Shown one piece after another: positions 21,057 to 46,910 of a DNA stretch of 64,000 nt; the stretch's first letter is position 1; each line of letters begins with the position of its first letter. The notes under the pieces are model-generated. The model worked only from the letters and a program-made list of their open reading frames with translations, did not search any database and had not been told where the DNA came from. A program made the translations under genes and the position numbers. Origin of the DNA: Rhizophagus irregularis (Eukaryota); NCBI RefSeq assembly GCF_026210795.1, contig NC_089433.1, forward strand, positions 1,674,001-1,738,000, in the 5' to 3' direction.

Positions 21057-23461
21057 TTATTTTAAAGGTATTTTGAGTATAAGTTCTATAGATTTATTTA
21101 CATTTTTTATTAGAGACTCTATTTTTTTATTTGTTTTTTCGGTTATTCTCATATTTTGAGTCCCTTTGAGGTTATTTAAATAATCTTCAACGGTAAATGC
21201 CGCATTTCTTTTTGGTGTAATAAAAATAGAGGATACCGGATTGTATGGAGAATATCGTATTGTAGGTGATATTGTTTTTAAATTTTCTTTCTAAATAATA
21301 GAGAAATTGGTATGTAAATCAATTCTTTACAGAGAATAAAAAGAATAATTTTTTTTTTTACCTTATTCTCTTTTGTTTCGATATTTTCCGCTAGTTCGTT
21401 TAATTGTTCATCGAACTTCTCTTCGTTATTTAGTTTTCCTTTAGTTTTTTCATTTGTTATAATATCACCCATTTTATAAATTTCCTCAATTGATTTGACA
21501 TTATTTACTTGACCATCAATTATGTCTCCCTCATCTGTAATAGTTTCGTCTATAATATTAAGTTCTTCCATATGTGTAATAATATTTTGTTCGTATATAT
21601 TAAATTCTTCCATATCTGTAATGACATTTCGTTCACTTTTGTCAATTATGCAAAGTTCCTCCATATCTGTAATCATATTTCGTTCATTCTCATCCATGAT
21701 CGTACTATTTGATTCTTTATTTACAATAATATCAAGTTTCTCTTCATTTTCTATAATGTTATTACGTTCCCCCTCATTTGTAATAATGTTATTTAGTTCC
21801 TCCTCATTTGTTATAATGTCATTCCGTCCCTTCTCATTTGTTATAATGTCATTTCGTCCCTCCTCATCAATAACATTACTTTGTTCTTCCCTATTTATAA
21901 AGACATTTTCTCGTTCATCTTCTTCCACGCGCGTTAAAACATAATTTAGTAGATCTTGGCTCATAAGATGTTCCTCATTTTCGCTAATATTACTTAATTT
22001 TTCATTGATTCCTTCCTCAACTGAAAAATTCATCGATTTTTCCTTAATTTCTTCTCGTGTTCTTCTAAGTTTATCAACAGACTCGTCCCCTTTCGTTTGA
22101 TCATTATTTATTAGTCCGATAATCTCTTCCTCGTTGGTTTGAGCATTATTTACTTGTTCAACAATTCTTGTTCCTTCTTCGTCTGTGCTGTTATTGTCAA
22201 CCTTTTTTATTTGCTCATCAATCTCCTCACTTTTTTCGATAAATTCTGCACGTTCCTCAATTCCATTTATACTAATAATGTTTGGTAATTCGTCAATTCT
22301 TTTTTCGTTTATATCAGTAATATTGTGTGGTTCGTCTATATTCTCCTCAGTTATATTAATATTTTTTGATGGTTCGTCATTTACATTCTCATCTATACTA
22401 GTAAGTGATTCGTTCACATCCATATTAATTATCCTTAGTAGCTCGTCCATATTCGTACCAGCTATCATTGGAATTACTTCTTCATTTATATTAATAATAT
22501 TTAATGATTCGTCAATTTCATTCTCATCCATACTAATAATATTTAATGGCTCGTCCATATTCGTATTAATTAACATTGGTTCGTCAAAAATTATTTCTTC
22601 ATTTATATTCTCATCTACACTAGTAATAATTAGTGGGTCATCCACATTCATACTAATTATCATTAGTGATTCGTCAATTACTTCTTCATTTATACTAATA
22701 ATATTTGATGATTCGTTGATTCTCTCATTACTGATACTAATATTATTTGGTGATTCGTTGATTTTCTCCTCATTTACACTAATTATCATTGGTGGTTTGT
22801 CGATTATTTCTTCATTTATACTAATAATATTTGATGATTCGTTGATTCTCTCGTTACTGATACTAATATTATTTAGTGATTCGTTAATTTTCTCCTCGTC
22901 AATTACTTCTTCATTTATACTAATAATATTTGATGATTCGTTGATTCTCTCATTACTTACACCAATATTATTTGGTGATTCGTTAATTTTCTCCTCATTT
23001 ACACTAATTATATTTGATGGTTCGTTTAGTGATTCGTTAATTTTCTCATCTATTTCAAACCTCACATTTAATTTTTTATTTTTTTTAGTACGAGAAGTAA
23101 GATCAACGACCTCTACATCATTTTTATTATCGACATCTGCATCCTTTTTATTTCCACGAGATTTTTTCGATTTTGAAGGGGTTTTAGCAAAAAATATACA
23201 GGTATCGCCTCCTCTTTTACGATGTTCCTCCCTTTTAATTTATTAATTAAGTGAATAAAAAGTAATAAAAAAGACGCTATAAATAAATGAAAAAGATTCT
23301 TACACAGGATCATCGTCAGGTTCCCAACAATCTAGTTCGATCCCACAATACATACAAAATACATTATCTTCTGAAGTATAAGTTGGGGCAAAATAAAATC
23401 CAGCTTTCGCCATCTAACATTTTAAGAAACGCGTTAGAAATAATAAAAATAATAATAATAA

Positions 23462-25537: not shown

Positions 25538-28500
25538 TATTGTTTTTATTTATTCAAATAATTTTTATGGGTCTCCTTGGAGCGGTCCTAAAAAAAATAA
25601 AAATTTAAATTATTTGATACTTTTGATGATTTGATTTTATATATATATATATATATCCTTACCTTTTATTGTCGTTAAAAAAAAAATTAATAATAATAAT
25701 TTATAATGGTCGTAAAAAAATTGTCATAAAAATTATTTAAAAAAAAAACACTTGAATTAAAGGGTCTTTATCTTTATTATATATGTCAAATTGGTAACAT
25801 AGATGTAGTGAATCTTTACACGAAATACAAAGATTATCACTTATTGTAACCAAAAATAAACAGTAATTTCCTTAATATTTTTCCCTACTATTTTAATTTA
25901 TCCTTTTAGAATTTTGCATTATCTTTTAATCTATTTTTGGCATATTGTCCCCGAAAAAGAAATTGATAAGGAGAATACTTTGAATGTATTTACATATCGA
26001 TGCAATATAGATATTTTTAAAAATTTTTATTCATTTATCAAATAAAATTTTAGATCACACCAAAATCGCCCAATTTACTATTTCTTATCATATCATTATA
26101 ATACTTTATTAAGATAAACAAACTTTACTAATTTTGGTATATGACAATGTGTTACCGCCTATTCCGTTTATTATCAAAAAGAAAAAAGAGATTGTTGAAT
26201 ACAATCTTCTTTGCAGAGTCTTCATGCAGCTTTTTTGTCACTTGTGAAAACCTCATTCAAATAATAATAAAAGTGGTCCTAACCGAAACTTTGTTCATAT
26301 GCATGACGGTTAAAATTATCTTCCACGAATTCCGTAATAGGATTAATGCAATTTTTATCGTAATTAATCGTTACCCGTATTCCGTCCGTGTCAAATGCTG
26401 CACAAAATTACTAATCAGCATTCAAATATATATATATCTATTATAAAATAGCTGTTTAAGTAGTTTATAAAGTTATAATGTAATTCAGCACATAAATAAG
26501 TATGTATAGACTTTACGCTAAGAATCGTTAGTAAAAGAGATATGAATTCGACGATGCGTTGTTCACTTCCGAGTTACGAGGCATATGAAGGAGGATCTTC
26601 GAGAGAATTGTTACCCATATATGATATATTATTCTTGATTATAAACCGGAATTATATTCCGAATTGGGCTGAGATTGTTTTTATTATCCGATCATTTAAG
26701 GTTAACTAAATGTTTACCACTTAATTCATTTCTGGTACTCACATACTCAAAACAGTTTGACAGAAATATACATTAATTAATAATCTTATTATTATACTTA
26801 CGTAGCATTTTTTTTTGATATTATATCTATAAATAGTAACCCTCAAATATTATTTATAGAATATCATTATTATTATTTATTTATTATTTTTGAAACATTT
26901 CTTTTACTTCTTACAAATATTGTATATAAATGATATATTTTCGACAAAAAATCATAATTATTCCTTATAAAATTGATTAATAAAGTAGTTACTAATATTA
27001 TTGTTTCAAATTTTTATGTGCAAATGTAATTTGTAATGTTACAAGTATAAAGAAATTACCAATTTGTTTATGCTATTAATTTGCAAATTTACCTAAAAGT
27101 ATTACTAACTCTAACCTTAATCGTATTTCTTTTTGTACATTTTTCTTTTTATTATAACCCCTACTTTCTCCATTTCGCATTTAACCTACTAAAATTTAGA
27201 ACCTCGTCATTTGGTATTTTCGTTATAAAGAAATTTCCTTTGGTGATTTCCAATATTTCCGATTGCCGTTATAAATTTCTCACGTTACACGACATCGGTA
27301 AAACTTTCACTTTGGGTGTCATAGTATATATGATGTGAATATGTCAAAAAAAATCAGTAATTCAAAACTCGGTAAAATCATCGCCGGCAAAATGATCCTG
27401 TTGGTAAAATAATTGATGAAATGATTATCGGTGAGACCCTTAGTATACATTATCGTACATTCGTACTGCTTCTCTGTAAAAAATTTTATCCGTAATTCTC
27501 CGTGAATATGATACATTTATGGAAATAACATGAAATAAAAAAAAAACGGAATAAATTTTTTATGGGACGAACTAATGATTTTGGTTCTTTTTCTTCATTG
27601 GCTCATTCAGCCATTCCCATTTTCACACCCAAACCCGCTAAAAATTAAAAAAACTTGCCTATTTGGGATGAACCCCCGGTTGGGAAAAAAAAATTTTTTA
27701 TGGGACGAACTAATGATTTTGGTTCATTTTCCTCATTGGCTTATTCAGTCATTCCCATTTTCACACCCAACCCGCTAAAAATTAAAAAAACTTTGCCCGA
27801 TTGGGATGAACCCGGTTGGGAAAGAAAAACTGATTATTAAAAAAATTTAATAACCGTTTTTTTTTTTAATATTTGTTATCTATTTTTTATAAGAATGAAA
27901 ATGAACTGCATTAGAAATTTAAAAGTTTAAAAAATTTAGAAGTTGTAATTTGTAATTAAAAAATGGTAATTATTTCTCAACAAACTAGTGTCCAATTTAT
28001 AAAGAAATTTTGGAATTTTGAAATTATGGGTTGTCAAAACAAATGAATAATTATTATTTTATCAAAAGTTTAGAGATTAGTTCAGACGAAACATGTTATT
28101 GTGGTTATTGTGATTATCCTGCTTATTTTTTCCAACTTAGGAATACATTGACTTGCGTCACGAAAAATCTCACCCTATGATATCGCTATGCTATCGATTT
28201 GAGAACAAATTATCCATACATGAAGTTAAATGCTGATGTAATGGTACAATGATCTCTTTACATTATTATTTTTCGACAAAAGTTCCTTCGTCACGTGACT
28301 GCGTGAAGATTCACAGTGAAATTCGATTAACGATAAATTAAAAGTTTGGAACTGGAATTTTTCCGGATCAAATCATATATTAAGATAGATAGTTTCGATA
28401 TATTAATAAAATCTCGATAATAGAACAAACGGTTTGATATATCAGAATAAATAAACGAACCTAATTATAAAGTTTTGATTTTATTGCTATACATTATTAT

Positions 28501-31500
28501 ATGAACAGAATTTTACATGATTTAAAAAATTTTTTGCCTTATTGATTATAATAATCAAATTTTAGGATAATCAAAAGTTAAATTTTTATAGGTATAATAT
28601 TTTAAATTCAATATGTAATAATTTGTAAAGAAAACATGAAAAAAGGTTTGATTTTATTACCATTGATATTCGTAGAGCGGACAAATTTGACGCTGCCATG
28701 AATAAATAACGATTTTTACGTTTAGAGTCTTAAAAGATTCTTATTATAATGTTATCATACGTAATAATCAGGTGCGAATTGGCACTTTAAAACTTTGTCA
28801 ATTATGATCGCATCTTTATAAATTTATAGCACAGAATTTTATTAAATAATAAAATAATTTTTTATTAAATTAATTATAAATTACATACAATCGTTCAGAT
28901 GTTAAACATAAATCGATAATTTATTATTTATATTATTATATTAAATAATTAAATTAGCTCTTCCATTTTGAAATTTCTCATATTCACACCCAACCCGCTA
29001 AAAATTAAAAAAACTTGCCCGTTTGGGATGAACCCGGTTGGGAAAGAAAAACTGATCATTAAAAAAGAATTTAACAACCGTTTTTTTTTTAATATTTGAA
29101 ATTATCTATTTTTTAAAAAAATGAAAATGAATTGCATCGCAAAGCGTTAGGAATTAAAATTTAGAATTTTCGAAGTTGTAATTTGTAATTAAAAATGATA
29201 ATTATTTCTCAACAAACTAGTGTCCAATTTATAAAGAAATTTTGGAATTTTGAAATTATGGGATGTCAAAACAAATCAAAAATTTAGAAATTAGTTCAGA
29301 CGAAACGTGTTATTGTGGTTATTGTGATTATCCTGGTTATTTTTTCCAACTTAGGAATACATTGACTTGTGCCACGAAAAATCTCACTCTATGTTATCGT
29401 TATGCTATCGATTTGAGAACAAATTATCACACATGAAGTTAAATGCTGATGTAATGGTACAATGATCACTTTACATCATAATTTTTTTTATTTTTCGACA
29501 AAGTTCCTTCGTCACGTGACTGCGTGAAGATTATGATTAACGGAATCTCGGTTATGGAACTGAATTTTTATCAGAATTTTCTGGATTATATTAAGATAGT
29601 TTCGATAATGGAATATATTAATATATTAGTAAAATCTCGATAATCGAACAAAAGGTTTGATATATCAGAATAAATAAACGAATAAATAAACGAACCTAAG
29701 TAATTATAAAGTTTTGATTTTATGCTATACATTATATGAACAGAATTCACATGATTTAAAATTTTAGGATCATAACCAAAAGTTAATTTTTATAGGTATA
29801 ATATTTAAGTTCAATATGTAATAATTTGTAAAGAAAACATGAAAAAAGGTTTAATTTTATTACCATTGATATTTGTAGAGCGGATAAATTTGATGCTGCC
29901 ATGTATAAATAACGATTTTTACGTTTAGAGTCTTAAAAGATTCTTATTATAATGTTATCATACGTTATAATCAGGTGCGAATTGGCACCTTAAACTTTAT
30001 CAATTATGATCGTATCTTTATAAATTTATAGCACAGAATTTTATTCAATAATAAAATAATTTTTTATTAAATTAATTATAAATTATATCAAAAAAAAGCT
30101 TAACCGGTTAATAACCGTACAATCGTTCAGATGTTAAACAGAAGTCGATAATTTACTATTTATATTCATATATTAAATAATTAAATTAGAACAAAATAGC
30201 TCTTCCATTTGGAAATTTCTCTTATTCACACCCAACCCGCTAAAAATTAAAAAAACTTGCCCGATTGGGATGAACCCGGTTGGGAAAGAAAAACTGATCA
30301 TTAAAAAAATTTAATAACCGTTTTTTTTTTAATATTTGTTATTTATTTTTTATTAGAATGAAAATGAACTGCATTAGAAATTTAAAAGTTTAAATAATTT
30401 AGAAGTTGTAATTTGTAATTAAAAAATGGTAATTATTTCTCAACAAACTAGTGTCCAATTTATAAAGAAATTTTGGAATTTTGAAATTATGGGTTGTCAA
30501 AACAAATGAATAATTATTATTTTGTCAAAAGTTTAGAGATTAGTTCAGACGAAACACGTTATTGTGGTTATTGTGATTATCCGCTTATTTTTTCCAACTT
30601 AGGAATACATTGACTTGCGTCACGAAAATCTCACTCTATGCTATCGCTATGCTATCGATTTGAGAACAAATTATCATACATGAAGTTAAATGCTGATGTA
30701 ATGGTACAATGATCTCTTTACATTATAATTTTTTTTTATTTTCGACAAAAGTTCCTTCGTCACGTGACTGCGTGAAGATTCACAGTGAAATTCGATTAAC
30801 GATAAATTGAAAGTTTGGATTTTTATCGGAATTTTTCCGGGTCAAATCATATATTAAGATAGATAGTTTCGATATATTATAAAATCTCGATAATAGAACA
30901 AACGGTTTGATATATCAGAATAAATAAACGAACCTAATTATAAAGTTTTGATTTTATGCTATACATTATATGAACAGAATTTACATGATTTAAAAAATTT
31001 TTTGCCTTATTGATTATAATAATCAAATTTTAGGATAATCAAAAGTTAATTTTTATAGGTATAATATTTTAAGTTCAATATGTAATAATTTGTAAAGAAA
31101 ACATGAAAAAAGGTTTGATTTTATTACCATTGATATTCGTAGAGCGGACAAATTTGACGCTGCCATGAATAAATAACGATTTTTACGTTTAGAGTCTTAA
31201 AAGAATCTTATTATAATGTTACCATACGTTATAATCAGGTGCGAATTGGCACTTTAAAAATTTCGTCAATTATTGCATCTTTATAAATTTATAGCACAGA
31301 ATTTTATTTATTCAATAATAAAATAAATAATTGTTTTATTAAATAAATTATAAATTACTATGTACAATCGTACAGATGTTAAACAGAAATCGATAATTTA
31401 TTATTTATATTATCTGTTATTATATTAAATAATTAAATTAGAACAAAATAGCTCTTCCATTTGGAATTTCTCATATTCACACCCAACCCGCTAAAAATTA

Positions 31501-33510
31501 AAAAAACTTGCCCGTTTGGGATGAACCCGGTTGGGAAAGAAAAACTGATCATTAAAAAAATTTAATAACCGTTTTTTTTTTTAATATTTGTTATCTATTT
31601 TTTATAAGAATGAAAATGAACTGCATTAGAAATTTAAAAGTTTAAAAAATTTAAAAGTTGTAATTTGTAATTAAAAAATGATAATTATTTCTCAACAAAC
31701 TAGTGTCCAATTTATAAAGAAATTTTGGAATTTTGAAATTATGGGTTGTCAAAACAAATGAATAATTATTATTTTGTCAAAAGTTTAGAGATTAGTTTCA
31801 GAAGAAACACCTTATTGTGGTTATTGTGATTATCCTAGTTATTTTTTCCAACTTAGGAATACATTGACTTGCACCACGAAAAATCTCACTCTATGCTATA
31901 GCTATGCTATCGATTTGAGAACAAATTATCATACATGAAGTTAAATGCTGATGTAATGGTACAATGATCTCTTTACATCATAATTTTTTTTTATTTTTCG
32001 ACAAAAGTTCCTTCGTCACGTGACTGCGTGAAGATTCACAGTGAAATTCGATTAACGATAAATTAAAAAGTTTGGAACTGGAATTTTTCCGGATCAAATT
32101 ATATATTAAGATAGATAGTTTCGATATATCAATAAAATCTCGATAATCGAACAAACGGTTTGATATATCAGAATAAATAAACGAACCTAATTATAAAGTT
32201 TTGATTTTATGCTATACATTATATGAACAGAATTTTACATGATTTAAAAAATTTTTTGCCTTATTGTTTATAATAATCAAATTTTAGGATAATCAAAAGT
32301 TAATTTTTATAGGTATAATATTTTAAGTTCAATATGTAATAATTTGTAAAGAAAACATGAAAAAAGGTTTGATTTTATTACGATTGATATTCGTAGAGCG
32401 GACAAATTTGATGCTGCATGAATAAATAACGATTTTTACGTTTAGCGACTTAAAAGATTCTTATTATAATGTTATCATACGTAATAATCAGGTGCGAATT
32501 GGCACTTTAAAACTTTGTCAATTATGATCGCATCTTTATAAATTTATAGCACAGAATTTTATTCAATAATAAAATAATTTTTTATTAAATAAATTATAAA
32601 TTATGTACAATCGTACAGATGTTAAACAGAAATCGATAATTTATTATTTATATTATTATATTAAATAATTAAATTAGAACAAAATAACTCTTCCATTTGG
32701 AATTTCTCATATTCACACCCAACCCGCTAAAAATTAAAAAAACTTGCCCGTTTGGGATGAACCCGGTTGGGAAAGAAAAACTGATTATTAAAAAAAATTT
32801 AATAACCGTTTTTTGTATTTCAATAGTAATTTATTAATTAGAATTTCGAAGTTGTAAGTTGTAATTAAAATTTAGTGATTATTTCTCAACAAACTAGTGT
32901 CCAATTTATAAAGAAATCTGAAAATTTTGAAATTATGGGATGTCAAAACAAATGAATAATTACTTTGTCAAAAGTTTAGAAATTAGTTCAGACAAAACAC
33001 GTTATTGTGGTTATTGTGATTATCCTGGTTATTTTTTCCAACTTAGTAGGAATATACTGTATACATTGACTTGCGTCACGAAAAATCTCACTCTATGCTA
33101 TCGCTATGCTATCGATTTGAGAACAAATTATCATTCACGAGCTAAATGCTGATGAATTGGTACAAATGATCTCTTTACATAACAATTTTTTTATTTTTCG
33201 ACTTAAAATTACAAAAATTCCTTCATCACGTGACTGAGCGAAGATATTCGAAATAACGGAATTTTAATAAATTGGAACTGAACTTTTTTATCAGAACTTT
33301 TTCTGGAACAAAATCATATATATTAAAGTAGTTTCGTTATAATGGAATATATATAGTGGTGATAAAATCTCGATAATCGCTATAACGAAACATACAGCAA
33401 AAATCGGATATCAGAATACATGATGATCTACGTAGATGAACCAATAAAATTAATCTCGCATGACAAAAAATAAGACGATAAATAATAGATACACTAAATT
33501 ATAGCTATAT

Positions 33511-33690
33511 CGCAGGTCGAAGAGATATGGTTTACAACTTTACATGAAGTTTATTCTAATAGAAACTTTTCCAATTTCCATGTTGTATGCCAGATTTCAA
33601 CGAAGTTTCCAGCTTTCGTGGAAATGTTATGCAAATTCAATCACGTACACCAAGGTTTCCATAGTGGAAACCATACCACTTTGACCAGTG
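33511..33690. mobile_element. CACTA/EnSpm-type MITE inserted in array unit 6
   Basis: Left end CGCAGGTCGAAGAGATATGGTTTAC vs reverse complement of right end CACTGGTCAAAGTGGTATGGTTTCC. 3-bp TSD TAT. The homologous site at ~35540-35575 is empty. Confidence 0.7.
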
Positions 33691-34106
33691 TATTAGGTAT
33701 ACAATGTATATAAGTACATTCTTTTTTGATTTAGTTAATTTTAAAATGCAAAGTTATAATGAATTTATTTAAAAATAAAATAAACGAATTACAAAATTCG
33801 GTAGATGTTATAATGTTGCCGAAAAAAATGTGAAAATCACATTTTATTTTTAAACCTCTCCATTTGGCCTCCCACTTACACACCCAACCCGCTAAGAATT
33901 AAAAAAACTTGCCCATTTGGGAAATATAACCCGGATGGGAAGAAAAAACTAATTATTAAAAATTTAATAACTGTTTTTTTTTTGATAAAGATTTTTTTTT
34001 TTTTGAAAAGAAAGGTATAAGTTAAAAAATTGATTATTACTGAACAAATTAATGATCTATTTATAATGAAATCTAGAAAATTTGAAATTATGGGATGTTA
34101 AACATT

Positions 34107-34214
34107 ATGGGGTGTCAAAAACTCAAAAGTTTAGTTCATAACGTTATTGTGGTTATTGTGTCTATCATGATTATCATGGTTATTGTTACTAAACTTAGGG
34201 ACGGAATACATTGA
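34107..34214 (+). CDS. Putative 35-aa single-TM micropeptide in unit 7 (MGCQKLKSLVHNVIVVIVSIMIIMVIVTKLRDGIH)
   Basis: Hand translation; lies just downstream of the conserved TATA-like box; paralogous open frames exist in other units. Confidence 0.3.
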   Translation: MGCQKLKSLVHNVIVVIVSIMIIMVIVTKLRDGIH

Positions 34215-37200
34215 CTTGCGTCACGAAAAATCCTACTCTATACTATCAATTTGAGAACAAATGAAGTTAAATGCTGATGTAATGGTATAAATGATCTCTT
34301 TACATGATAATTTTTTTATTTTTCGATTTGAATTCCTTCATCACGTGACTGCGTGAAGAGATTGACGGAATCAATAAAATTGAAAGTTTGGAACTGGATT
34401 TTTATCGGAATTTTTCTGGATCAAATCATACATTAAAATAGTTTCGATATAATGGAATATATTAGTAAAATCCTGATAATCGAACAAACGGTTTGGTATA
34501 CCAGAACAAATATTGTTACACATTATATGAGAACAGAATTTTACATGATTTAAAAAATTTTCGACTTATCGATTATAATAATCAAGTTTTAGGATAATCA
34601 AAAGTTGGTAAATATTAGTTCAATACTATGTAATAATTTGCAAAGAAAACATGAATTTTATTACTATTGATATTTATAGAGCGGGACAAATTTGATGCTG
34701 TCATGAATAAATAGTAACGATTTTTACGTTTAGCGTCTTAAAAAATTCTTATTATAATGTTACCATACGTAATAGTAATCAGGTGCGAATTGGCACTTTA
34801 AAACTTTGTTAATTATGATCGCATCTTTATAAATTTACAGCACAGAATTTTATTCAATAATAAAATAATTTTTTATTAAATAAATTATAAATTATGTACA
34901 ATCGTTCAGATGTTAAACGGAAATCGATAATTTACTATTTCATATATTAAATAATTAAATTAGAACAAAATAGCTCTTCCATTTGGAAATTTCTCATATT
35001 CACACCCAACCCGCTAAAAATTAAAAAAACTTGCCCGTTTGGGAAGAACCCTGTTGGGAAAGAAAAACTGATTATTAAAAAAAATTTAATAACCGTTTTT
35101 TTTAATAAGAATGAATTTTAAAAATTTAGAATTTCGAAATTTGTAAGTTGTAAATTAATGATAGTGATTATTTCTCGACAAACTAATGTCCCATTTATAA
35201 AGAAATATGGAAATCTTGAAATTATGGGATGTCAAAACGAATGGTTATTGTCAAAAGTTTGACAATTATGGTTATTGTGTCTATCATGGTTATTGTTTAA
35301 CCTAGGAATACATTGACTTGCGTCACAAAAAATTCCACTCTATGCCATCGATCGATTTGAAAACAAATTATCAATCATGGGCTAAATGCTGATGAAATGG
35401 TGCAAATGATCACTTTACATCTTTTTCATTTTCAACACCAAATCCTTCTGAATGAATTGACAAAGATAAGACGCTAAATAGTAATTTAGATACACCTGGT
35501 GCCTTACATAAAATAATAATAAATTAATAAATAATTTAGATACACTAAATTTTAGCGTATATTAGATATACAATGCACGTCTAGCTAGTTAATTTTAGTT
35601 ATTTTTAAAATGCAAAGTTTTATAATTTTATTGTTACACATATAAGAACGGAATTTCACATGGTTTAATATGAGTTCCGGTATATCAATAATTTTCAAAA
35701 TCTTTATATAAAATGTTCTTTATTCAGTTCAATATGCAATAGTTTGTAAAGAAAACATGAAAAAAAAGATTTTATCACTACCAATTGTTTGAAGAGTATT
35801 TTAATCTGTCTAAGAACGTGGACGCTGCCTCAAAGTAAAGTTCTGAACAAATAACGGCTTTTATGTTTAGCGTCTTCTTAATATAATGCTAATGCTATCA
35901 TAAGTGATAATCAATCGCGAATTTGCACTTTGAAAGTTTTGTCAATTATCGCATCTTTATAAGTTTATAGCACAAAATTTTACTAAATAATAAAAAATTA
36001 TTTATTTAATAAGTTATAAATTATAATACATTCGTTCTGATGTTAAATAGAAATCGATTGACTACTTGAATAATTTATTTATATGCGTATATTTATTTAT
36101 TAAATAATTAAATTAGAACGAATATAAAATTTTTGAAAAATAATGATTCTTTTTTTTATAGTTCTTCTATTTAGAAATTTCTCATTTTCACACCCAACCC
36201 GCTAAAATTAAAAAAAACTTGCCCATTTGGGAAGAACCCGGTTGGGAAGAAAAACTGATTATTAAATTTAGTAACCGTTTTTTTTTTAAAAGAATGAATT
36301 TTAAAAATTGATTATTAAATAATTGATTATTTCTCAACAAACTAATGTCCCATTTATAACGTAATCTGGAAAATTTGAAATTATGGGATTGAATGATTAC
36401 TTTGTCAAAAGGTTAGAATTTGCAATACGTTATTTGTGGTTATTGTGTCTATCATGATTATCATGGTTATTGTTTAACCTAGGAATACATTGACTTGCGT
36501 CACAAAAAATTCCACTTTATGCCATCGTTTTGAGACATAAGCTAAATGCTGATGAAATGGTACAAATTATCTCTTTACATGATAATTTTTTTTATTTTTC
36601 GACTTAAAATTACAAAAATTCCTTAACCACGTGACTGAGTGAAGATGCAAAGTGAAAGTCGACATAACGGAATTTCAATAAATTGAAACTGGCTTTTTTA
36701 TCAGAATTTTTTCTGAAACCAAATCATATATATTAAAATAGTTTCGATATACTGTATATTGGATAATCAAACAAACAAGTCGTAATAAAATAGATCAGAA
36801 CACGTGATGACTGATCTACATGACATTTAATAAAATTATTTAATAAAAGACGTGTAGATATTAGATGTTACCGATGTAACTAGAAACAATGTGAAATTTT
36901 ACAAAAAATTTCGTTTATTTTTAAAACTTTTCATTTGACCATTACACACCCAACCCGCTAAGAATTAAAAAAACTTGCCCATTTGGGAAATATAACCCGC
37001 ATGGGAAGAAAAAACTAATTATTAAAAATTTAATAACTGTTTTTTTTTTGATAAAATTATTTTTTTTTTTGAAAAGTTATAAGTTAAAAAATTGATAATC
37101 ACTGAACAAATTAATGATCTATTTATAATGAAATCTAGAGAATTTGTAATTATGGGATGTCAAAACATTATGGGGTGTCAAAGACTGTCAAATTTTTATC

Positions 37201-37221
37201 GTTATTGTTGTTATTGTCTAT

Positions 37222-37503
37222 CACTATAGTAGGACAAATTGATATTGCAAAAAAACCCATGAATTTTTAATAACAAGTGATAAAATTTATTAATGATCTG
37301 TATAACTCTTTAAAAATTCGCTATAGTCTATAGCGAGGGTATTTGTTCTGACATTTAAATTCGAATTGCAAAGTACAAAGGTTTTAATATAAAAATTCAC
37401 TATCATATCAAAATTATTTATTATAAAAAATCTGTACTGGACCTTTTCTTCATTATAGCAAGTTATTCACTATACAAAAATTCGTTATAGTGAGGGTGAA
37501 CTG
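37222..37503. mobile_element. Truncated Tc1/pogo-type element remnant interrupting unit 10
   Basis: Right end ..TTCGTTATAGTGAGGGTGAACTG|TA (CAGT-type TIR plus TA), with internal repeats of TTCRCTATA/TATAGYGAGGGT. Unit homology stops at ~37220. Confidence 0.45.
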
Positions 37504-38448
37504 TATTGTACGTTTGATATATGATTAAGTTATTTTATTAATAGACAATATGTAAGATATGAAAGCAACAATACATTTTTTAAGTCATCTAAGTGGAGTC
37601 GTAGAGTCATGTGATGCGGGTTCCTAAAGCTGGCGACAATAACCATCATGATAATCGTGATAGACACAGTAACGCTACGAACTAAATGTTTGACAAAGTA
37701 ATCTTTCATTTGTTTTGACACTCCATCCATAATATTTTGACATCCCATAATTTCAAAATTTCTAGATTTCAGTATAAATATATCATTGGTTTGAACAGTG
37801 AACATTAAAAATAATAAATTCCTTTTTTAAAACAAAAGTTTTTCATCAAAAAAAAAAAACGGTTATTAAATATTTAATAATCGGTTTTTTCTTCCCAGCC
37901 GGTTCTGGGCAAGTTTTTTCAATTTTTAGCGGGTTGGGTGTGTAAATGAGAAATGGCCAAGTGGAGAGTTATAAAAATAAACGAGAGTTTTGTAAAATTC
38001 CACATTTTGCATAATATCTACAGAACGTCTGTAATTTATTTTATTTAAATTTTTATGTTACATAAATTTAGATACAATAGTAATTAACAAACTTTTAAGT
38101 GACTAAATTCTTAAGCGAATTAAAATATATTTACATCGATATTGATAAAATTCTTTACATTACATTTTTTCCAACCTTTTTTTTATGTTCTTTACAACCT
38201 TATCAGATCGAACTTGATATAGAAAATATTGTCTATAAAATCTTAAATTTGATGATTATTATTATAGTCGTAATAACTATTCGATCATAAATATTGAATT
38301 ACAAATATATGCAGACGCTTAGGTTTTAGGTTTTTTTGTATTTATGCGCAAAATTTACATATACTAGGTTATCAGCCATATTTGTTAACAAAAATGCCAG
38401 TTCTAAAAGCGAATTATACGTAGAAATACTCCGCTTATAATTGGTTAC

Positions 38449-39410
38449 CATCAGGAGTTTAAAAGGGTGTAGATTTGCAAAATTACACGTATGTAAAAAA
38501 TCACGCAAATTCACGACACCTACGTGGGTATACGGGCGTGTAAAATCACAAATATTCTTAATAATGAGAATTCCTATATTAATTTAATAAAAAAATTTTT
38601 GTATTTTTAAATATAAGGGGAATACACGATAAAATTCTTCTCTTCCTTTCTTTTTCTTCTTGTTCCCTTTATTTCTCTCTCACCTCTCTCCTTTCCTTCA
38701 TTTGTTATTTCTTTCCTTAATATTTTTATTTACTCGGCATAATTTTTTTATATTTATTTATTTATTTTTTTTTGCTTACCTTAGGATCGAACTGATTACC
38801 TTGAGTTATTTTATTATATATCATATCTCGCAACTTAACCACTATGCTATTTAACTTTTTTTATAATTTACAGTATTATATTTTATATTTATCTTAAAAA
38901 TCATACTTTGAGTAAGTTACGCAAAATTGCATATTTACATGTTTTTTTATATCATAAAATGGTGTAACTATCTATTTATATAAATCCACACTACTTTTTT
39001 AAACCAAATTTATCAAAATATTTCGAATTGTTGTATTTATGTATGGATTGCTTAAAATCATATGTTTGTACAATTTTTTAGCATGTGAATATCCGAAACT
39101 ACTTGTTTATGTAAATTTACACAATTTTTTTTTAGATGGAAATTTGTTGAAATATTTTAGACTGTGATTTTATATATAGAATACTCAAAATTATGTATTT
39201 ATACAATTTTTCAGAATATAGATTTTTGAAACTATCTGTTTATAAAAAATCTATGCAATTATTTTAGACACGAATTATCAAATAGTACTATATTTTAAGT
39301 GTAAATTAAACAATATCGCGTATTTACGAGTTTTTTCAAGGTGTAAATTTTCGGGATTACCCATATTTGATAAATCTACATTAATATACACATAATTTAA
39401 TCTCCTGATG
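38449..39410. mobile_element. Non-autonomous DNA transposon (~960 bp, CMC/EnSpm-like ends) in the palindrome spacer
   Basis: TIRs CATCAGGAGTTTAAA / TTTAATCTCCTGATG, AC on both flanks (possible 2-bp TSD), subterminal TGTAGATTT/TGTAAATT repeats, no ORF. Confidence 0.6.
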
Positions 39411-39728
39411 ACTGTTGTGCTTGAATCCATTAAACAAATACTCATTTGAATAAAAAATCAAATAATGTACGATTCTTTACCAATATAAACACACATCACT
39501 TAGCCACGCATCAATTTATCAATTATTAATATTTATTTTATTTATTTTTGAATTAATATATTATAATACATAATACCTTCTTCCTATAAAAAATTTTCTA
39601 GGAAAAATTCCGATAAATGATCATTTTTCTAGTTTTCATTCCAAAAAAAACTTCAATTTTTATAGGGCTTATTACTGTAATAGTCGATTATTATTTAACT
39701 TACGTGATGAATGATTTTGTTGGAACTA

Positions 39729-39827
39729 CAGTCAAACCTCTATGTACCGATGTGGTTGTTTTAGGGAAAAAGTATCGGTACATTGAATTATCGGTACACC
39801 GGGGATCGGTACATAGAGGTTTGACTG
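39729..39827. mobile_element. 99-bp Tc1/mariner (pogo/Tigger-type) MITE
   Basis: Perfect 23-bp TIR CAGTCAAACCTCTATGTACCGAT / ATCGGTACATAGAGGTTTGACTG flanked by a TA TSD. Confidence 0.85.
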
Positions 39828-40286
39828 TATCCTTAAATAAAATATTCTCCGTCTCCATGAAAAAATCACTATCACGTGACTTTTGGTGGTACATAAAATT
39901 GGCGAAGTATGTGACAAATAATCGGTGACAATACTTTAGCTAGGATTTCACACATTGAAAAAGATTCGAGAACGGAGGGGTGTGACTTGGAATGACGATT
40001 ATTTTCCATGTGGTCACGTGAAAGTGAAATTTTTATGGTGACGCTTGGAAATTTTTACTAGCAAAAGTCGAAATTAAAACCAATTATTATCATGTAAAGA
40101 GAAATCATTTACCAGAATTTAGTTCATGAATGATAATTTAAAATGTTGACATAGCGTTTGATTTAGCTTACAAAAATCTAAAGATTGATTATTATTGATT
40201 ATTTCTTCTAAATACACCTAGGTTACAAACCAACTTACCAACTTTGACTTGCACTTTAATTTATTTACTTTTTGCAAATTGAATTT

Positions 40287-40436
40287 TTATTTCAAGTCTT
40301 TCAACTCTTTTTGTTGTTGTCTTTCGGAATCAAGATTATTTTTTTTGTGATACAAGTCGAAGTTAGTAACAATAACCATGATAATCGTGATAGACATAAT
40401 AACCACCAACACCCCATAATGTTTTGTACATCCCAT
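40287..40436 (-). CDS. Putative 49-aa single-TM micropeptide in unit 12 (MGCTKHYGVLVVIMSITIIMVIVTNFDLYHKK..)
   Basis: C-terminal part of ORF 40287..40505, starting at the conserved ATGGGATG. Confidence 0.3.
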   Translation of the reverse strand: MGCTKHYGVLVVIMSITIIMVIVTNFDLYHKKNNLDSERQQQKELKDLK

Positions 40437-42256
40437 AATTACAAATTCTCTAGATTTCATTATAAATAGATCATTAATTTGTTCAGTGATTATCAATTTT
40501 TTCACTTATAACTTTTCAAAAAAAAAAAAAATAATTTTATCAAAAAAAAACAGTTATTAAATTTTTAATAATTAGTTTTTTCTTCCCATGCGGGTTATAT
40601 TTCCCAAATGGGCAAGTTTTTTTAATTTTTAGCGGGTTGGGTGTGTAATGGTCAAATGAAAAGTTTTAAAAACGAAATTTTTGTAAAATTTCACATTGTT
40701 TCTAGTTACATCTAATATCTACACGTCTTTTATTAAATAATTTTATTAAATGTCATGTAGATCAGTCATCACGTGTTCTGATCTATTTTATTACGACTTG
40801 TTTGTTTGATTATCCAATATACAGTATATCGAAACTATTTTAATATATATGATTTGGTTTCAGAAAAAATTCTGATAAAAAAGCCAGTTTCAATTTATTG
40901 AAATTCCGTTATGTCGACTTTCACTTTGCATCTTCACTCAGTCACGTGGTTAAGGAATTTTTGTAATTTTAAGTCGAAAAATAAAAAAAATTATCATGTA
41001 AAGAGATAATTTGTACCATTTCATCAGCATTTAGCTTATGTCTCAAAACGATGGCATAAAGTGGAATTTTTTGTGACGCAAGTCAATGTATTCCTAGGTT
41101 AAACAATAACCATGATAATCATGATAGACACAATAACCACAAATAACGTATTGCAAATTCTAACCTTTTGACAAAGTAATCATTCAATCCCATAATTTCA
41201 AATTTTCCAGATTACGTTATAAATGGGACATTAGTTTGTTGAGAAATAATCAATTATTTAATAATCAATTTTTAAAATTCATTCTTTTAAAAAAAAAAAC
41301 GGTTACTAAATTTAATAATCAGTTTTTCTTCCCAACCGGGTTCTTCCCAAATGGGCAAGTTTTTTTTAATTTTAGCGGGTTGGGTGTGAAAATGAGAAAT
41401 TTCTAAATAGAAGAACTATAAAAAAAGAATCATTATTTTTCAAAAATTTTATATTCGTTCTAATTTAATTATTTAATAAATAAATATACGCATATAAATA
41501 AATTATTCAAGTAGTCAATCGATTTCTATTTAACATCAAAACGAATGTATTATAATTTATAACTTATTAAATAAATAATTTTTATTATTTAGTAAAATTT
41601 TGTGCTATAAACTTATAAAGATGCGATAATTGACAAAACTTTCAAAGTGCAAATTCGCGATTGATTATCACTTATGATAGCATTAGCATTATATTAAGAA
41701 GACGCTAAACATAAAAGCCGTTATTTGTTCAGAACTTTACTTTGAGGCAGCGTCCACGTTCTTAGACAGATTAAAATACTCTTCAAACAATTGGTAGTGA
41801 TAAAATCTTTTTTTTTCATGTTTTCTTTACAAACTATTGCATATTGAACTGAATAAAGAACATTTTATATAAAGATTTTGAAAATTATTGATATACCGGA
41901 ACTCATATTAAATCATGTGAAATTCCGTTCTTATATGTGTAACAATAAAATTATAAAACTTTGCATTTTAAAATAACTAAAATTAACTAGCTAGATGTGC
42001 ATTGTATATCTAATATACGCTAAAATTTAGTGTATCTAAATTATTTATTAATTTATTATTATTTTATGTAAGGCACCAGGTGTATCTAAATTACTATTTA
42101 GCGTCTTATCTTTGTCAATTCATTCAGAAGGATTTGGTGTTGAAAAATGAAAAAGATGTACTAAAGTGATCATTTGCACCCATTCCATCAGCATTTAGCC
42201 CATGATTGATAATTTGTTTTCAAATCGATCGATGACATAGTGGAATTTTTTGCAAG

Positions 42257-42373
42257 TCAATGTATTCCTAAGTTAGAAACAATAACCATGATGATCATGA
42301 TAGACATAATAACCATAATAACGTGTTTCGTCTGATAAACTTTTGACAATAACCATTCGTTTTGACATCCCAT
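42257..42373 (-). CDS. Putative 38-aa single-TM micropeptide in unit 14 (MGCQNEWLLSKVYQTKHVIMVIMSIMIIMVIVSNLGIH)
   Basis: Hand translation from the conserved ATGGGATGT to the conserved GGAATACATTGA. Confidence 0.3.
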   Translation of the reverse strand: MGCQNEWLLSKVYQTKHVIMVIMSIMIIMVIVSNLGIH

Positions 42374-43377
42374 AATTTCAAGATTTCCATATTTCTTTAT
42401 AAATGGGACATTAGTTTGTCGAGAAATAATCACTATTATTAATTACAACTTATAAATTTCGAAATTCTAAATTTTTAAAATTCATTCTTATTAAAAAAAA
42501 AACGGTTATTAAAATTTTTTAATAATCAGTTTTTCTTCCCAATCGGGTTCTTCCCAAACGGGCAAGTTTTTTTAATTTTTAGCGGGTTGGGTGTGAATAC
42601 AAATGGAAGAGCTATTTTGTTCTAATTTAATTATTTAATATATGAAATAGTAAATTATCTATTTCCGTTTAACATCTGAACGATTGTACATAATTTATAA
42701 TTTATTTAATAAAAAATTATTTTATTATTGAATAAAATTCTGTGCTGTAAATTTATAAAGATGCGATCATAATTAACAAAGTTTTAAAGTGCCAATTCGC
42801 ATCTGATTATTACGTATGGTAACATTATAATAAGAATTTTTTAAGACGCTAAACGTAAAAATCGTTATTTATTCATGGCAGCATCAAATTTGTCCGCTCT
42901 ACAAATATCAATAGTAATAAAATCATTTTTTTTCAGACTTTTTTTTCATGTTTACTTTACAAATTATTACATATTGAACTTAAATATTTTACCTATAAAA
43001 ATTAACATTTGATTATCCTATTATAATCGATAAGTCGAAAATTTTTTAAATCATGTAAAATTCTGTTCTTCATATAATGTAACAATAAAATCAAAACTTT
43101 ATAATTAGGTTCGTTCATTTATTCTGGTATACCAAACCGTTTGTTCTATTATCAGGATTTTGCTAATATATTCCATTATATCGAAACTATTTTAATATGA
43201 TTTGATCCAGAAAAATTCTGATAAAAATCCAGTTCCAAACTTTCAATTTATAATCGAATTTAAATCTTCACGCAGTCACGTGATGAAGGAATTCAATTCG
43301 AAAAAAAAAAATTATCATGTAAAGAGATCATTTGTACCATTACATCAGTATTTAACTTCATGTATGATAATTTGTTC

Positions 43378-43545
43378 TCAAATCGATAGTATAGAGTAGG
43401 ATTTTTCGTGACGCAAAGTCAATGTATTCCTAAGTCTAGTAACAATAACCATGATAATCGTGATAGACACAATAACCACAATAACGCTATGAACTAAACT
43501 TTTGAGTCTTTTATTTGTTTTAACACCCCATAATGTTTTTGACAT
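43378..43545 (-). CDS. Putative 55-aa single-TM micropeptide in unit 15 (MSKTLWGVKTNKRLKSLVHSVIVVIVSITIIMVIVTRLRNTLT..)
   Basis: Hand translation from the second ATG of ATGGGATGTCA. Confidence 0.25.
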   Translation of the reverse strand: MSKTLWGVKTNKRLKSLVHSVIVVIVSITIIMVIVTRLRNTLTLRHEKSYSILSI

Positions 43546-45869
43546 CCCATAATTTCAAATTTTCTAGATTTCATTATAAATAGATCATTAATTTGTTCAG
43601 TAAATATGCAATTTTTTCACTTATAAATTTCTTTTCAAAAAAAAAAAAAAAAAATTTATTAAAAAAAAACAATTATTAAAATTTTAATAATTGGTTTTTT
43701 CTTCCCATCCGGGTTATATTTCCCAAATGGGCAAGTTTTTTTTAATTCTTAGCGGGTTGGGTGTGTAATGGTCAAATGGAGAGTTTTACTAATTTTTTGT
43801 AAAATTTCTAGTAATATTGGTAATTTATTTTATTATTAAATAAATTTTCGTAATTTAGATACAATAATTAATAAAACTTTTAAGTGCCAATTTGCCGCAT
43901 ATTAACGGCATATAATAAGATCTTTTAAGACGCTAAAGAAAAAATCGACATTTATTTAAAACTCCACTTCGAGGCAGCGTCAGATTTGTCACGTTCTTAG
44001 ACGGATTAAATTATATTTTTTCTTTCCCATAATTTTAAATTTCAGTAAAAAATAGATCATTAGTTTGTTTAGTGATCATTCAATTTTTCTTGTTTTCTGT
44101 TTTTTTTAAAAAAAAAATTTTATTAAAAAAGAAAAAAAAAGGGTATTAAATTTAATCCTAAATGGGCAAGTTTTTTTTTAATTCTTTAGCGGGTTGGGTG
44201 TATAAAATGGGAAGTATTCAAATAGAAGAACTATTAAAATAAAACATTAAAAATTTGAATATGATTCTGTTTAAGTAACATCATTTGATTAAATCAGTAT
44301 GCATGCTATCTATAGAACGTCTGTATTTAATTTAATTGGTACGAAAAATTGAAAGGGGGGGGGAGGGTTATGTTAAAAAAAGTATTGAATTTGAACAGCC
44401 TAACTATGGCATATATCAGCTCATTACAAACATCTCATAATATACAATATGTTATTATAATAATAATAATAATAATAATAGGAGAGAAGACTTGCTATGA
44501 TTGTTAGGATGACTTATGTTTGTCGGCATTGTGTTAGTGTGCTACCAAATTTGATCACGCAGCGCAGTAATTCGATCGGATCATCGGAAATCTGATCAGT
44601 CTTTTTTGAACATGTTCGGAATCACCTAAAATGTTTAGCGAAAAAAAACCTTCACCACATTATTCCATGAAAAATTGAGAATAAGTCGGATCCGGATGAT
44701 CGACATTCCTGGATTTTTTGATTTGCCGGATTATTGTGAAATTAGTAAAATCAAATTTAAAATGTTTATGTTCCCGAGTCTAATATTTAAACTAATCGAT
44801 TATTTCATACAAGAATTTAGTAATTATATCATTTAATATAGGTACAAAATAGAAATTTCAAAATTACTATTTTTTTATATTTAAATTAAGAAAGGTGAAA
44901 GCCTCCAAGTGAAACGGTGAAAAAAAAAATGAAATGGCGGAGGTGAAATGATTAAAAAGAAAATAATATAAGTCATTAAAATTGATGCTTAAGTACCTTT
45001 GCATACCTTTAAATCATAAATTTGCGACATTAGGGTGGTCAATCAACTAAGTAAACCAAATCTACCGTATAACACTGACTAAAAGACTTAAAAAATTTTA
45101 ATTTTGGTAGAATTACGCTAATACTGCCCAATTTTTTCATGTTCCACTATACGTTATATTGTGGGATCATATAAAAATTTGCTATCGAAATTTTTTTTTG
45201 TGTAACGAAAATTTCTTTTGAAATGGAATTTTCTCTTAATTCTATCAATCCATCTAAATAAACTTTCTGATGACTTTTATATTTCTTATTTGCTTTTTTT
45301 TAATTGGAACTAGCGTTTATATGTCTGAAGCGCATATTTACTGTACTGAATTAATAAAATTTGTGTTAACTGCCCAGATTTTACCCTGTCATAATCATCA
45401 CTGTTTTTCTTTTTATGATTATGTAGTACTTTTTTAAATGACTCCTGAAAATACACCAAGATCGCAATAGTGCGCCGGTTTCCGTTTCCTAATATATACA
45501 CATTATTAAATTAGAAGCTAATTTAAAACCATTGATATAATCTTATAAATAAATGCTTCGTAATTTTGTAGCATAGTACATAAAAAAAGTAATTATTGCC
45601 AAAGTAAGTGAGAGAGAAATTTTGTTTCTAAAATATGAACTATCTTATGTATGAAAAAAAATCTAACTAAGCTAAAAGTTAGATAACCTGATATAGTTTT
45701 GACTTACTTAATTGACTGATCACATCGAAATTCAAATAGTATTTGAATGCTTATTGTTATTATCGATATATATTCCTCGGATTTAGTTCACGAAATTGTT
45801 TTTCTTATTAAAATGTTGATTTGCTTAGTGTTCATTGACCTACATGACTGTATCTATAATAATGTTTGC

Positions 45870-46090
45870 CTAAAATTAGATACAATAACCATGATAAACC
45901 ATGACATAACAAAGTGATCTTTCCATAATTTTAAAATGATTTTTTTCAGCAATAATTCAAAATGTCATTAACTAATTATTCATTCATTCATTAATAATTA
46001 ATTAATTGAAAAAAATGATCAGTTTTTCTTCCCAGCTGGGTTCTGCGAGTATTTTAATTTATAACAGTGAAGTTGGTGTGGAAATGCTTC
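45870..46090 (-). repeat. Degenerate outlying copy of the array unit
   Basis: ACAATAACCATGATAA, TTCCATAATTT and ATGATCAGTTTTTCTTCCCAGCTGGGTTC..GTTGGTGTGGAAATG occur in the same order as in intact units. Confidence 0.6.
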
Positions 46091-46910
46091 TTCGTGAATT
46101 ACCTATTATATAAATATTTATAACATATAAACATTTTGACCCATAATAGGATGTGAGAGAACTCTCATCATTCTGAAGCTTTACAATTAAGAATATTATT
46201 CACTAATTGAATGGATAATTATTTTTGTTAGAACTTGTCATGTGAACAGCTCTTTTCCCTGACGAACACTTTAGTATGCTTCTCAACGCTTTTTTTTTGT
46301 ATTCTTGAACCCTAGGAAATGTAATTTTTTCAGTTTAGCTTAAGTTCAGCTCAGCCTGTTTTGAGAATGTGCTAAATCAATTGGTCTTGATACATAAGTT
46401 AAAAGTTATTTATTTAAATGTATAAAACTATATTAAATTCATTATTATCCATATTTATCATTATAAAGACAAATACTAAATGGCACAATCTAAGATGGGC
46501 ATTTGCTATTGTACTTATTAAGGCTTATTAAAAAAGCGCTAAACCAGATCGAGTGAATCACGTTTGAAGTTCCCTAAAAAAATGTCAAAATTAAAAACCA
46601 TGATGATCGTTTCTATCAAAAGTTATCAATTAAAGAATTAAAACCAAAACAAAAAATTGGCGTCGAAGACAACATATGTACCATATGTGATTATTCATTA
46701 TATTGTAAGGGTTTTAAATGGTAGAAATGAAACACCGTTGACGATCATAATCAAGTTTCACCAGAACAATATTTACTCGATTAAGGGGGAGACGTTTTAC
46801 GTTTTAAACATTACTTCGGATAACTTATACGTATATAAGTTTGCAAGTTTTAAATCCTACTTTTTACTCAAGCTGGACTTCACGAGTTAAAATTAAGGAA
46901 TCTATTAAAA

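Follow-up and report, generated by a model that had tools for sequence, protein, structure and literature searches.

A repeat array in Rhizophagus irregularis that probably encodes a family of structured non-coding RNAs behind an snRNA-type promoter

Genes with snRNA-type (type 3, SNAPc/USE) promoters, known from plants, algae, ciliates and amoebae, are multi-copy small RNA genes with a near-identical box at about −60 and a fixed distance between this box and the TATA element (PMC8287931). An array of repeated units in the stretch of Rhizophagus irregularis DNA analyzed here (64 kb, hereafter the window) shares these features, but its RNA belongs to no Rfam family, is apparently polyadenylated and has a variable leader and tail; its spacing is Pol III-like, whereas its product looks Pol II-like, and SNAPc in R. 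irregularis is hypothetical. The Class I RNAs of Dictyostelium are, like the array RNAs, lineage-restricted multi-copy non-coding RNAs (ncRNAs); both groups have an upstream element of the snRNA type at a distance of about 60 nt, and both contain a conserved stem as well as a short motif that does not vary (PMC7919456). According to the same source, Class I RNAs measure 42–65 nt, their stem joins the two ends and their motif has 11 nt, whereas the array RNAs run to several hundred nucleotides around an internal core of ~100 nt and show no sequence likeness to them in Rfam. ENEs, which are triple-helix stability elements (KSHV PAN, MALAT1 and transposon ENEs), and the array core have in common two U-runs that flank a G-C-rich stem 5′ of the poly(A) site (PMC7583470). 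The array differs in its weak lower closing stem (85.7% paired, mostly A-U or G.U) and in the place of its A-run, which precedes the element on the 5′ side within one RNA, a mirror image of MALAT1. R. irregularis itself has a miRNA-like cluster (loci 338–345), in which non-coding loci follow one another in tandem at intervals of about 1 kb, but these have no sequence match in the window, and the array has no long hairpin.

Our main reading, to which we give a probability of roughly 0.65, is that the array is a lineage-specific family of structured ncRNA genes with an snRNA-type promoter, probably transcribed by Pol II and, in the copies with RNA data, with a fixed start 34 nt past the TATA element and no shared reading frame. 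Its products are likely to form a class of folded ncRNA that has so far gone undescribed. An Rfam search of the array, proposed along with the sequence-only reading of this DNA, returned no match at the gathering score (four chance-level matches, E up to 5), and models of the U1, U2, U4, U5, U11, U12 and U4atac snRNAs did not match the units. The Sm site, with its consensus RA(U)4–6GR, is missing, the nearest motif being AAUUUUUAG, AAUUCUUAG in units 7, 10 and 15. A strict core pattern had no match in metagenomes, and all 84 matches of a looser pattern (50 metagenome, 32 genome and 2 viral contigs) were judged to be chance in view of their flanks, of BLAST results and of their scores with the RNA model (23.5 bits at best); because the scanned collections hold little fungal DNA, these nulls are uninformative on range. 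No description of the locus was found in the literature searched, a scope that took in few subscription papers.

A covariance-model search of the window placed 17 copies of the ~100-nt core, 14 intact and three degenerate, all within 27.6–46.1 kb, which confirms the repeat array first claimed from the sequence. Intact cores score 108–136 bits, as expected by construction because they built the model, and the degenerate ones score 70.6 (unit 1), 31.5 (unit 16) and 25.6 bits (unit 17); elsewhere in the 64 kb searched the model has no match at E < 0.06. Conserved motifs follow the order that had been proposed for them and are confined to the same interval of the window. The proposed unit of ~1.2 kb holds for nine of 15 same-strand intervals (1.12–1.25 kb) but not for the other six (137, 437, 743, 756, 1878 and 2703 bp), and the picture of a single head-to-tail tandem array has to be given up: 10 copies point one way and seven the other, and a 3.3-kb inverted duplication within the array repeats 33851–37178 in inverted form at 43788–40409, with 92% identity overall and 99–100% over the middle ~1.5 kb. 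Units 7–10 and 15–12 are therefore duplicates and not independent. Conservation is patchy, as had been suggested; identity variance in 30-column windows over three divergent units was 0.0185 against 0.0065 when shuffled (p = 0.0002). None of the outcomes named in advance as speaking against the sequence-only reading was encountered in the window and the RNA data compared with it. Neither of the two ORFs of at least 90 codons in the array has a Pfam match, in line with the view that the array holds no conventional gene.

Units 1–10 lie on the minus strand. Unit 1 (27618–27709) is a degenerate core fragment that lacks a promoter of its own and belongs to a local 137-bp duplication. In unit 2 (27756–28031), the box is at 28031, the TATA element at 28001, the predicted start at 27967 and the core at 27756–27872. 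In the same order, the positions are 29263, 29233, 29199 and 28979–29096 for unit 3 (28845–29263), where a contig ends at the start; 30494, 30464, 30430 and 30221–30336 for unit 4 (30221–30494); and 31746, 31716, 31682 and 31472–31587 for unit 5 (31472–31746). Starts are predicted for units 6 (32708–32940; 32940, 32910, 32876, 32708–32824), 7 (33194–34095; 34095, 34065, 34031, 33873–33989), 8 (34995–35229; 35229, 35199, 35165, 34995–35111), 9 (36183–36388; 36388, 36358, 36324, 36183–36293) and 10 (36939–37157; 37157, 37127, 37093, 36939–37055), the last with a distal promoter truncated near 37220. Units 11–17 lie on the plus strand, beginning with unit 11 (37743–37948; 37743, 37773, predicted start 37807, core 37844–37948), which is divergent from unit 10. 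The inverted duplicates of units 10, 9, 8 and 7 are, respectively, unit 12 (40431–40651; 40431, 40461, predicted start 40495, core 40535–40651), unit 13 (41188–41394; 41188, 41218, predicted start 41252, core 41284–41394), unit 14 (42368–42601; 42368, 42398, predicted start 42432, core 42487–42601) and unit 15 (43545–43771; 43545, 43575, predicted start about 43610, core 43654–43771). Degenerate unit 16 (44025–44208) has a box at 44025 and no canonical TATA element, and the 5′ half of its core is missing; unit 17 (45870–46086), the most diverged copy, has no box–TATA pair.

RNA data were compared with 27400–33950, that is, with units 1–7. Part of the stretch is contained in 20 of 24 listed runs, four of which were compared, and the RNA evidence consists of contigs from two runs (X5 and X7) that we presume to be RNA. 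Contigs of X5 that stop at 30430 and 31682 carry CCCC and adapter letters there, which we take to be a template-switch oligo and hence a marker of RNA 5′ ends; further contig ends lie at 29199 (X5) and 30430 (X7). All three mapped ends fall at TATA+34, on the strand opposite to the earlier reading, and 13 of the 15 units have pyrimidine|A at this position. The start sites of units 3, 5 and 4 (or 2) are fixed there; given the 98% identity of units 2 and 4, the ends at 30430, adapter-marked in X5 and plain in X7, may come from either. We assigned the RNA strand from two CT..AC joints, which read as GT-AG introns in that direction, and from a T-run that precedes 28920. The introns (29863–29725 and 29695–29581 on the minus strand, within 29581–29863, with a 29-nt exon between them) belong to a unit 4 read-through RNA represented by one X7 contig at depth 5.1. 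Contig ends and introns together overturn the strand and unit boundaries of the sequence-only reading, and, with transcription on the opposite strand, most of the islands that it listed become promoter.

The product is very probably a capped and polyadenylated RNA of ~350 nt (unit 3) to ~850 nt (unit 7), in which a variable leader (42–114 nt between units) and tail surround the core. To judge from a contig end, the poly(A) site of unit 3 is likely to be near 28845, 16 nt 3′ of an AAUAAA. The 3′ part of unit 7 is unrelated to that of other units, and contigs of both runs cover it down to 33194–33257. Longer transcripts carry a 3′ extension (28504–28800, minus strand, X5 contig) that holds the last two of the islands noted earlier, GTGCCAATTCGCAC and GGCAGCGTC on the RNA strand, and folds no better on that strand than on the opposite one. 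X5 depth, a poor gauge of expression in that it pools all copies, is 790–1680 in bins over the cores of units 3–6 and 0 in nine of 30 bins. From two poly(A) raw-read runs labelled as this species, 77 and 73 reads matched in a comparison that had no control gene; the majority of them were partial, and there was neither strand bias nor a start cluster among them. We also considered the core as an intron (GU...UAG, ~86 nt) and rejected this, as no such joint is among those listed and contigs cross both ends unspliced.

Upstream of the start, every one of the 14 intact units has WCCCATAA at −64 and TATAAA at −34, free of indels and separated by an invariant gap of 22 nt; the combination box-N22-TATAAA occurs 14 times in the array and nowhere else in the window. 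The whole 64 nt from box to start are free of indels, while leaders vary. The box agrees with published snRNA upstream elements (ACCCATAA, AACCCRTAA, RTCCCWTA and CCCRTAA; PMC8287931 Table 1). In plants the corresponding gap is 23–24 nt for Pol III and 32–34 nt for Pol II (same source), and the 22 nt found here are nearer to the Pol III spacing; the RNA nonetheless looks Pol II-made, and several units, too, have U-runs directly after the start. Of 16 units, 13 have a motif like AAATGGARAG at 5–16 nt 3′ of the core, and two more are doubtful cases at 1–2 nt, against a background of 174 in 1976 windows; the motif may correspond to the snRNA 3′ box. Nothing on SNAPc or an snRNA-gene box in R. irregularis was found in the literature searched. 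We think it reasonably probable that a SNAPc-type factor occupies the −64 box, at a distance of three helical turns from bound TBP, and that motifs farther upstream set the condition of expression. The putatively regulatory distal promoter of unit 4 (30495–30770, minus strand) may serve as an example, with ACAATAAC repeats at −135/−144, TGACGCAA at −192, TCAGCATTT at −266 and CACGTG at −336. The complex promoter that had been postulated is real as a rigid box–TATA–start arrangement, but the roles are swapped, the GC-rich core being transcribed and not promoter. Conversely, ATGGG(A/T)TGTC, taken for a gene start, is the reverse complement of the −64 box, and the TTATTGTGG repeats, together with the three islands that follow them, are promoter sequence upstream of the start.

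Within the RNA, the GC-rich core contains one well-supported hairpin, which is 99.1% paired, changes from G-C to A-U in four units (one clade, one event) and, read on the RNA strand, has 17 G.U cells against two A.C cells. The stem CUU(U)CCC/GGGCAAG is 100% paired and persists despite a 12-nt deletion in the inner arm of unit 11, where columns 47/98 change from A-U to G-C. Covariation amounts to one or two events among close paralogues. Outside the hairpin the fold is ambiguous: in 10 of the 14 units, pairing of the G-rich tail with a CCC run is energetically preferred over an ENE-like stem, which has a probability of 0.00–0.01 there and of 0.15–0.59 in the other four. The ENE-like fold has its upper stem 100% paired and its lower stem 85.7% paired with one compensatory change, but for most units another fold is lower in energy. 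By folding z-score, the RNA strand does no better than the opposite strand. A G-quadruplex, also considered, is absent from the lowest-energy fold in all 14 units. Our leading but weak guess is that the core is an ENE-like triple-helix module that stabilizes the RNA and displays the tail UUAGCGGGUUGGGUGUG. In such a model, the A-run would pair with the first U-run beneath the hairpin, the stem CUU(U)CCC/GGGCAAG would stack upon this helix, and the second U-run would fold back as a third strand to form about five U.A-U triples; the module might also clasp the poly(A) tail. The triple helix would then stabilize the RNA and expose the invariant tail to a protein or RNA partner. The complement of this tail does not occur outside the array in the window at up to two mismatches.

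Several other explanations deserve weighing. We regard it as highly improbable that the units encode micropeptides on either strand: although a frame of 36–42 codons spans the core in units 3–5 and two core indels are multiples of three, the frame has an AUG in only three of 15 units, 1-nt indels disrupt it in units 2, 9, 13, 14 and 15, and no protein homologue of its 42 residues was found. The opposite strand offers short hydrophobic or Cys-rich frames in some units, one of 98 codons, but the ATG proposed there lies in the promoter region, which in units 2 and 4 has an X5 depth of 0, and the long and spliced RNA forms hold no frame above 42 codons. No reading frame is common to the copies, and of the earlier suggestion of tiny genes for a micropeptide or an ncRNA, only the second half survives. 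Another view is that the core acts as DNA, with transcription-factor sites (for example, CC-N6-GG and CACCC) in a repeated enhancer or boundary and RNAs as by-products. Its G-rich tail and CCC/GGG runs are invariant without covariation and presumably resemble MADS-box and zinc-finger sites, and the two poly(A) runs give no signal; the strand bias of G.U pairs (17 versus 2), the compensatory change that preserves the hairpin and the single precise starts behind a rigid, dedicated promoter make this very unlikely.

A non-autonomous mobile element (Helitron, solo-LTR/TRIM or SINE-like), tandemly amplified with its own promoter and leaving its transcript as the RNA, is an unlikely source of the array. 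Helitrons have a 5′ TC and a 3′ hairpin-CTRR, and for 12 of the 14 intact units the alignment, in the earlier orientation, shows CCC-N4-GGG and then, ~9 nt farther on, CTRR|T, which resembles a Helitron 3′ end; yet no copy starts or stops at this junction, homology continues through it in every intact unit, and CTRR is disrupted in units 11 and 15. Partial reads join core pieces and box–TATA pieces to other flanks (loose ends 28990/29028 and 32904/32943), which points to relatives elsewhere in the genome and favors an element, and ENE-type elements are known in fungal transposon RNAs (PMC7583470). Against this, truncated units 10, 11, 12, 16 and 17 have lost their outer parts and retained box to core, CpG is undepleted (observed/expected 1.35 in the array, 1.06 outside), and the array has no transposase or RT frame, in line with the sequence-only reading (no transposase by Pfam among ORFs of at least 90 codons). 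Precursors of miRNA-like or siRNA molecules, perhaps aided by the inverted duplication, might be considered in a species with a cluster of seven miRNA-like loci in 8.3 kb (PMC6399891) and an array with a 3.3-kb inverted repeat. However, none of the seven published mature sequences occurs in the window at up to four mismatches, core motifs are absent from the searchable small-RNA supplements, which give selected small RNAs only, and the arms of the inversion yield same-sense RNA directed away from each other. At only 16 bp, the hairpin is also short for Dicer, and we consider such precursors very improbable.

No plant symbiosis is more widespread than the one for which R. irregularis is the model, and small RNAs apart, the searchable literature says very little about the ncRNAs of this fungus. 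If our reading as a structured RNA family is true, fungi would have a new, multi-copy class of RNA that is driven by a rigid promoter of its own, and host-induced silencing could be aimed at it directly. More speculatively, and with the odds against it, AM fungi may retain a SNAPc-type promoter that drives their own stage-specific, triple-helix-stabilized ncRNAs, acting as RNPs inside the root, a fungal counterpart of the Dictyostelium Class I RNAs with an inverted (5′-facing) ENE. In plants, a search based on snRNA-type promoters led to the telomerase RNAs (PMC8287931). If the −64 box also precedes U snRNA genes, snRNA-type promoters would persist in this fungal lineage, and the box would then be a handle for finding other unknown RNAs.

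We read the 17-unit array at 27.6–46.1 kb of the window as a real family of transcribed genes that appear to be non-coding and to use an snRNA-type promoter, at a probability of roughly two in three. The sequence-only reading had proposed a family of tiny genes with a promoter, and the genes stand as transcribed and apparently non-coding, whereas its choice of sense strand is reversed by the minus-strand starts and introns seen in RNA contigs over units 1–7. The motifs that it listed do recur in order and are confined to the array, and a covariance model trained on 14 of the cores finds 17 copies there, three of them degenerate, with no match elsewhere in the window below an E value of 0.06. 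Full-period units are 75–98% alike, and the patchy conservation is significant (P = 0.0002). The reported period of ~1.2 kb describes only nine of 15 same-strand intervals (1.12–1.25 kb), the remaining six being different. Ten copies point one way and seven the other, and 33851–37178 recurs inverted at 43788–40409; because these arms are 99–100% identical in the middle and 91–96% towards their ends, the profile suggests recent sequence exchange between them.

The array sits among ordinary fungal genes; its flanks are a BIR-domain gene and, on the other side, a gene of several exons that carries a Big_5 domain (22 exons scanned). An exon on the left side of the array matches a Rhizophagus irregularis protein at 100% identity, followed by matches in R. 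diaphanus, R. clarus, Glomus and Funneliformis at 89–56%. The Big_5 gene (46854–50123, plus strand) begins with a signal-peptide-like stretch and has hydrophobic exons on its 3′ side; beyond its single Big_5 domain, no Pfam domain or clear atlas match was found. At 21278–23239 on the minus strand a 653-codon frame, rich in Asn, Glu and Ile, has internal repeats and no Pfam match.

Evidence on RNA comes from four public runs compared with 27400–33950, which holds units 1–6 and the 3′ part of unit 7; two of these runs, X5 and X7, are contigs whose RNA status is only guessed. Two X5 contigs stop at 30430 and 31682 and continue into CCCC plus adapter letters, presumably the template-switching oligo that marks RNA 5′ ends, with a fourth C that we take to fit a cap. 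These ends mark RNA 5′ ends on the minus strand. One more X5 contig stops at 29199, and one from X7 at 30430; each of the three positions is precisely 34 nt away from the opening T of TATAAAT, at a pyrimidine/A junction that is present in 13 of 15 units. One X7 contig has two CT..AC joints, which are GT–AG introns on the same minus strand as the starts. A T-run stands just before 28920, and the contig end found at 28845 is 16 nt past AAUAAA, described as the main poly(A) signal in R. irregularis (PMC10234402). X5 depth, which pools all copies, is 790–1680 in bins covering the cores of units 3–6 and falls to zero in 9 of 30 bins, among them those directly upstream of the unit 2 and 4 starts.

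The other two runs, poly(A) raw reads, gave only 77 and 73 reads, mainly partial, with neither strand bias nor a start cluster over 27400–33950; expression may be condition-specific. X7 is labelled as another organism, while 18 of 31 contigs are at least 99% alike; it may plausibly be a host-root sample. One X7 contig (depth 7.65) joins 27739, 23 nt past the unit 2 core, to the 30430 start through one extra base; this circular or chimeric cDNA may mark a non-polyadenylated 3′ end. The stretch 27400–27582 is probably a multi-copy element transcribed there or elsewhere, because all four runs cover it with mixed letters and loose ends.

The listed motif ATGGG(A/T)TGTC reads GACA(T/A)CCCATAA on the RNA strand and is an upstream box. 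WCCCATAA begins at −64 in all 14 units with a canonical TATA, with zero indels in the 64 nt between box and start, and leaders past the start range from 42 to 114 nt; the window has 14 matches to the arrangement box-N22-TATAAA, all of them in the array. More distally upstream and with looser spacing, the units carry ACAATAAC repeats (in 14 of 15), TGACGCAA-like motifs (11), TCAGCATTT (11) and CACGTG (9), which we take to resemble HMG, bZIP and bHLH sites. Published SNAPc-bound snRNA upstream elements include ACCCATAA, AACCCRTAA, RTCCCWTA and CCCRTAA (PMC8287931, Table 1), and in Dictyostelium the genes for snRNAs and Class I RNAs have their element ~60 nt upstream (PMC7919456). The 22-nt box–TATA gap is close to plant Pol III spacing, in tension with the features that suggest Pol II, namely U-runs directly behind the start and the likely cap and poly(A). 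Downstream of the terminal units, at 46139 (+), 27567 (−) and 27705 (−), WCCCATAA occurs three more times with no TATA at the usual distance. Unrelated sequence at 37220–37510 truncates the unit 10 distal promoter and lies between this unit and unit 11, whose promoters diverge; by eye it looks like an insertion, and the inverted-repeat search reported no inverted ends for it.

The suggested micropeptide is unlikely, as no frame is common to the copies. A 36–42-codon frame crosses the core in units 3–5 only, has no homologue that we could find and is broken by 1-nt indels in other units, and the long and spliced RNA forms add no shared frame. Because the 3′ parts differ between units (that of unit 7, though contig-covered, is unrelated to that of unit 3), the common part is the ~100-nt core. 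Its first hairpin, in which an A-run pairs with the first U-run as an extension, is 99.1% paired across 16 pairs. One clade has replaced G–C by A–U, three other changes are one-sided and one pair is broken, and the hairpin has 17 G·U versus 2 A·C cells on the RNA strand; folding z-scores of the whole core do not favour the RNA strand. AAATGGARAG, 5–16 nt past the core in 13 of 16 units, may be a 3′-end signal.

Beyond the first hairpin the fold is ambiguous. In Model A, an invariant stem, CUU(U)CCC/GGGCAAG, would enclose a variable inner arm with U-runs on both sides, a likeness to the triple-helix stability element ENE as described in PMC7583470. This stem is 100% paired and persists in unit 11, where 12 nt are deleted; the paired change seen at columns 47/98 agrees with its register. 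Reads of another locus carry GGGAAAG at 29017 (6/6 and 9/9 reads), which would perfect the stem provided that its 5′ side, beyond the reads' reach, is unchanged. In Model B, the invariant G-rich tail would instead pair with a CCC run; this pairing, that of the consensus fold, reaches 92.9% and is preferred by energy in 10 of 14 units, with triples left out of the calculation. A triple-helix mechanism for the non-coding family is a tentative proposal that we hold with rather less than even confidence.

The units could instead derive from a transposon, since 12 of 14 units, when read in the opposite orientation, have a Helitron-like CTRR behind the GC-rich repeat; yet CTRR is internal to the homology, no copy ends there and truncated copies retain the box-to-core segment. 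A 103-bp element at 39727–39829 has perfect 25-nt inverted ends beginning and ending in TA, presumably like a Tc1/mariner-type MITE. Another inverted repeat, at 39850–40043, has arms of 31 nt that are 84% complementary and each contain CACGTGAC. The R. irregularis miRNA-like cluster described in PMC6399891 is a different locus, and none of the core motifs occurs in the searchable supplements of that paper, PMC11982788 and PMC13106029, which list selected small RNAs only. No Rfam family matches the array RNA, and the literature searched holds no description of the locus.

Returning to the non-coding gene family, its relatives are not limited to the array. Reads matching only 28990–29028 or 32904–32943 run into different sequence on both sides and represent diverged members at other places in the genome, of which one has a longer inner arm. 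Partial reads show that the core and the promoter module each have relatives at other loci; a transposon origin is therefore possible, and the family extends past this window into the wider genome.
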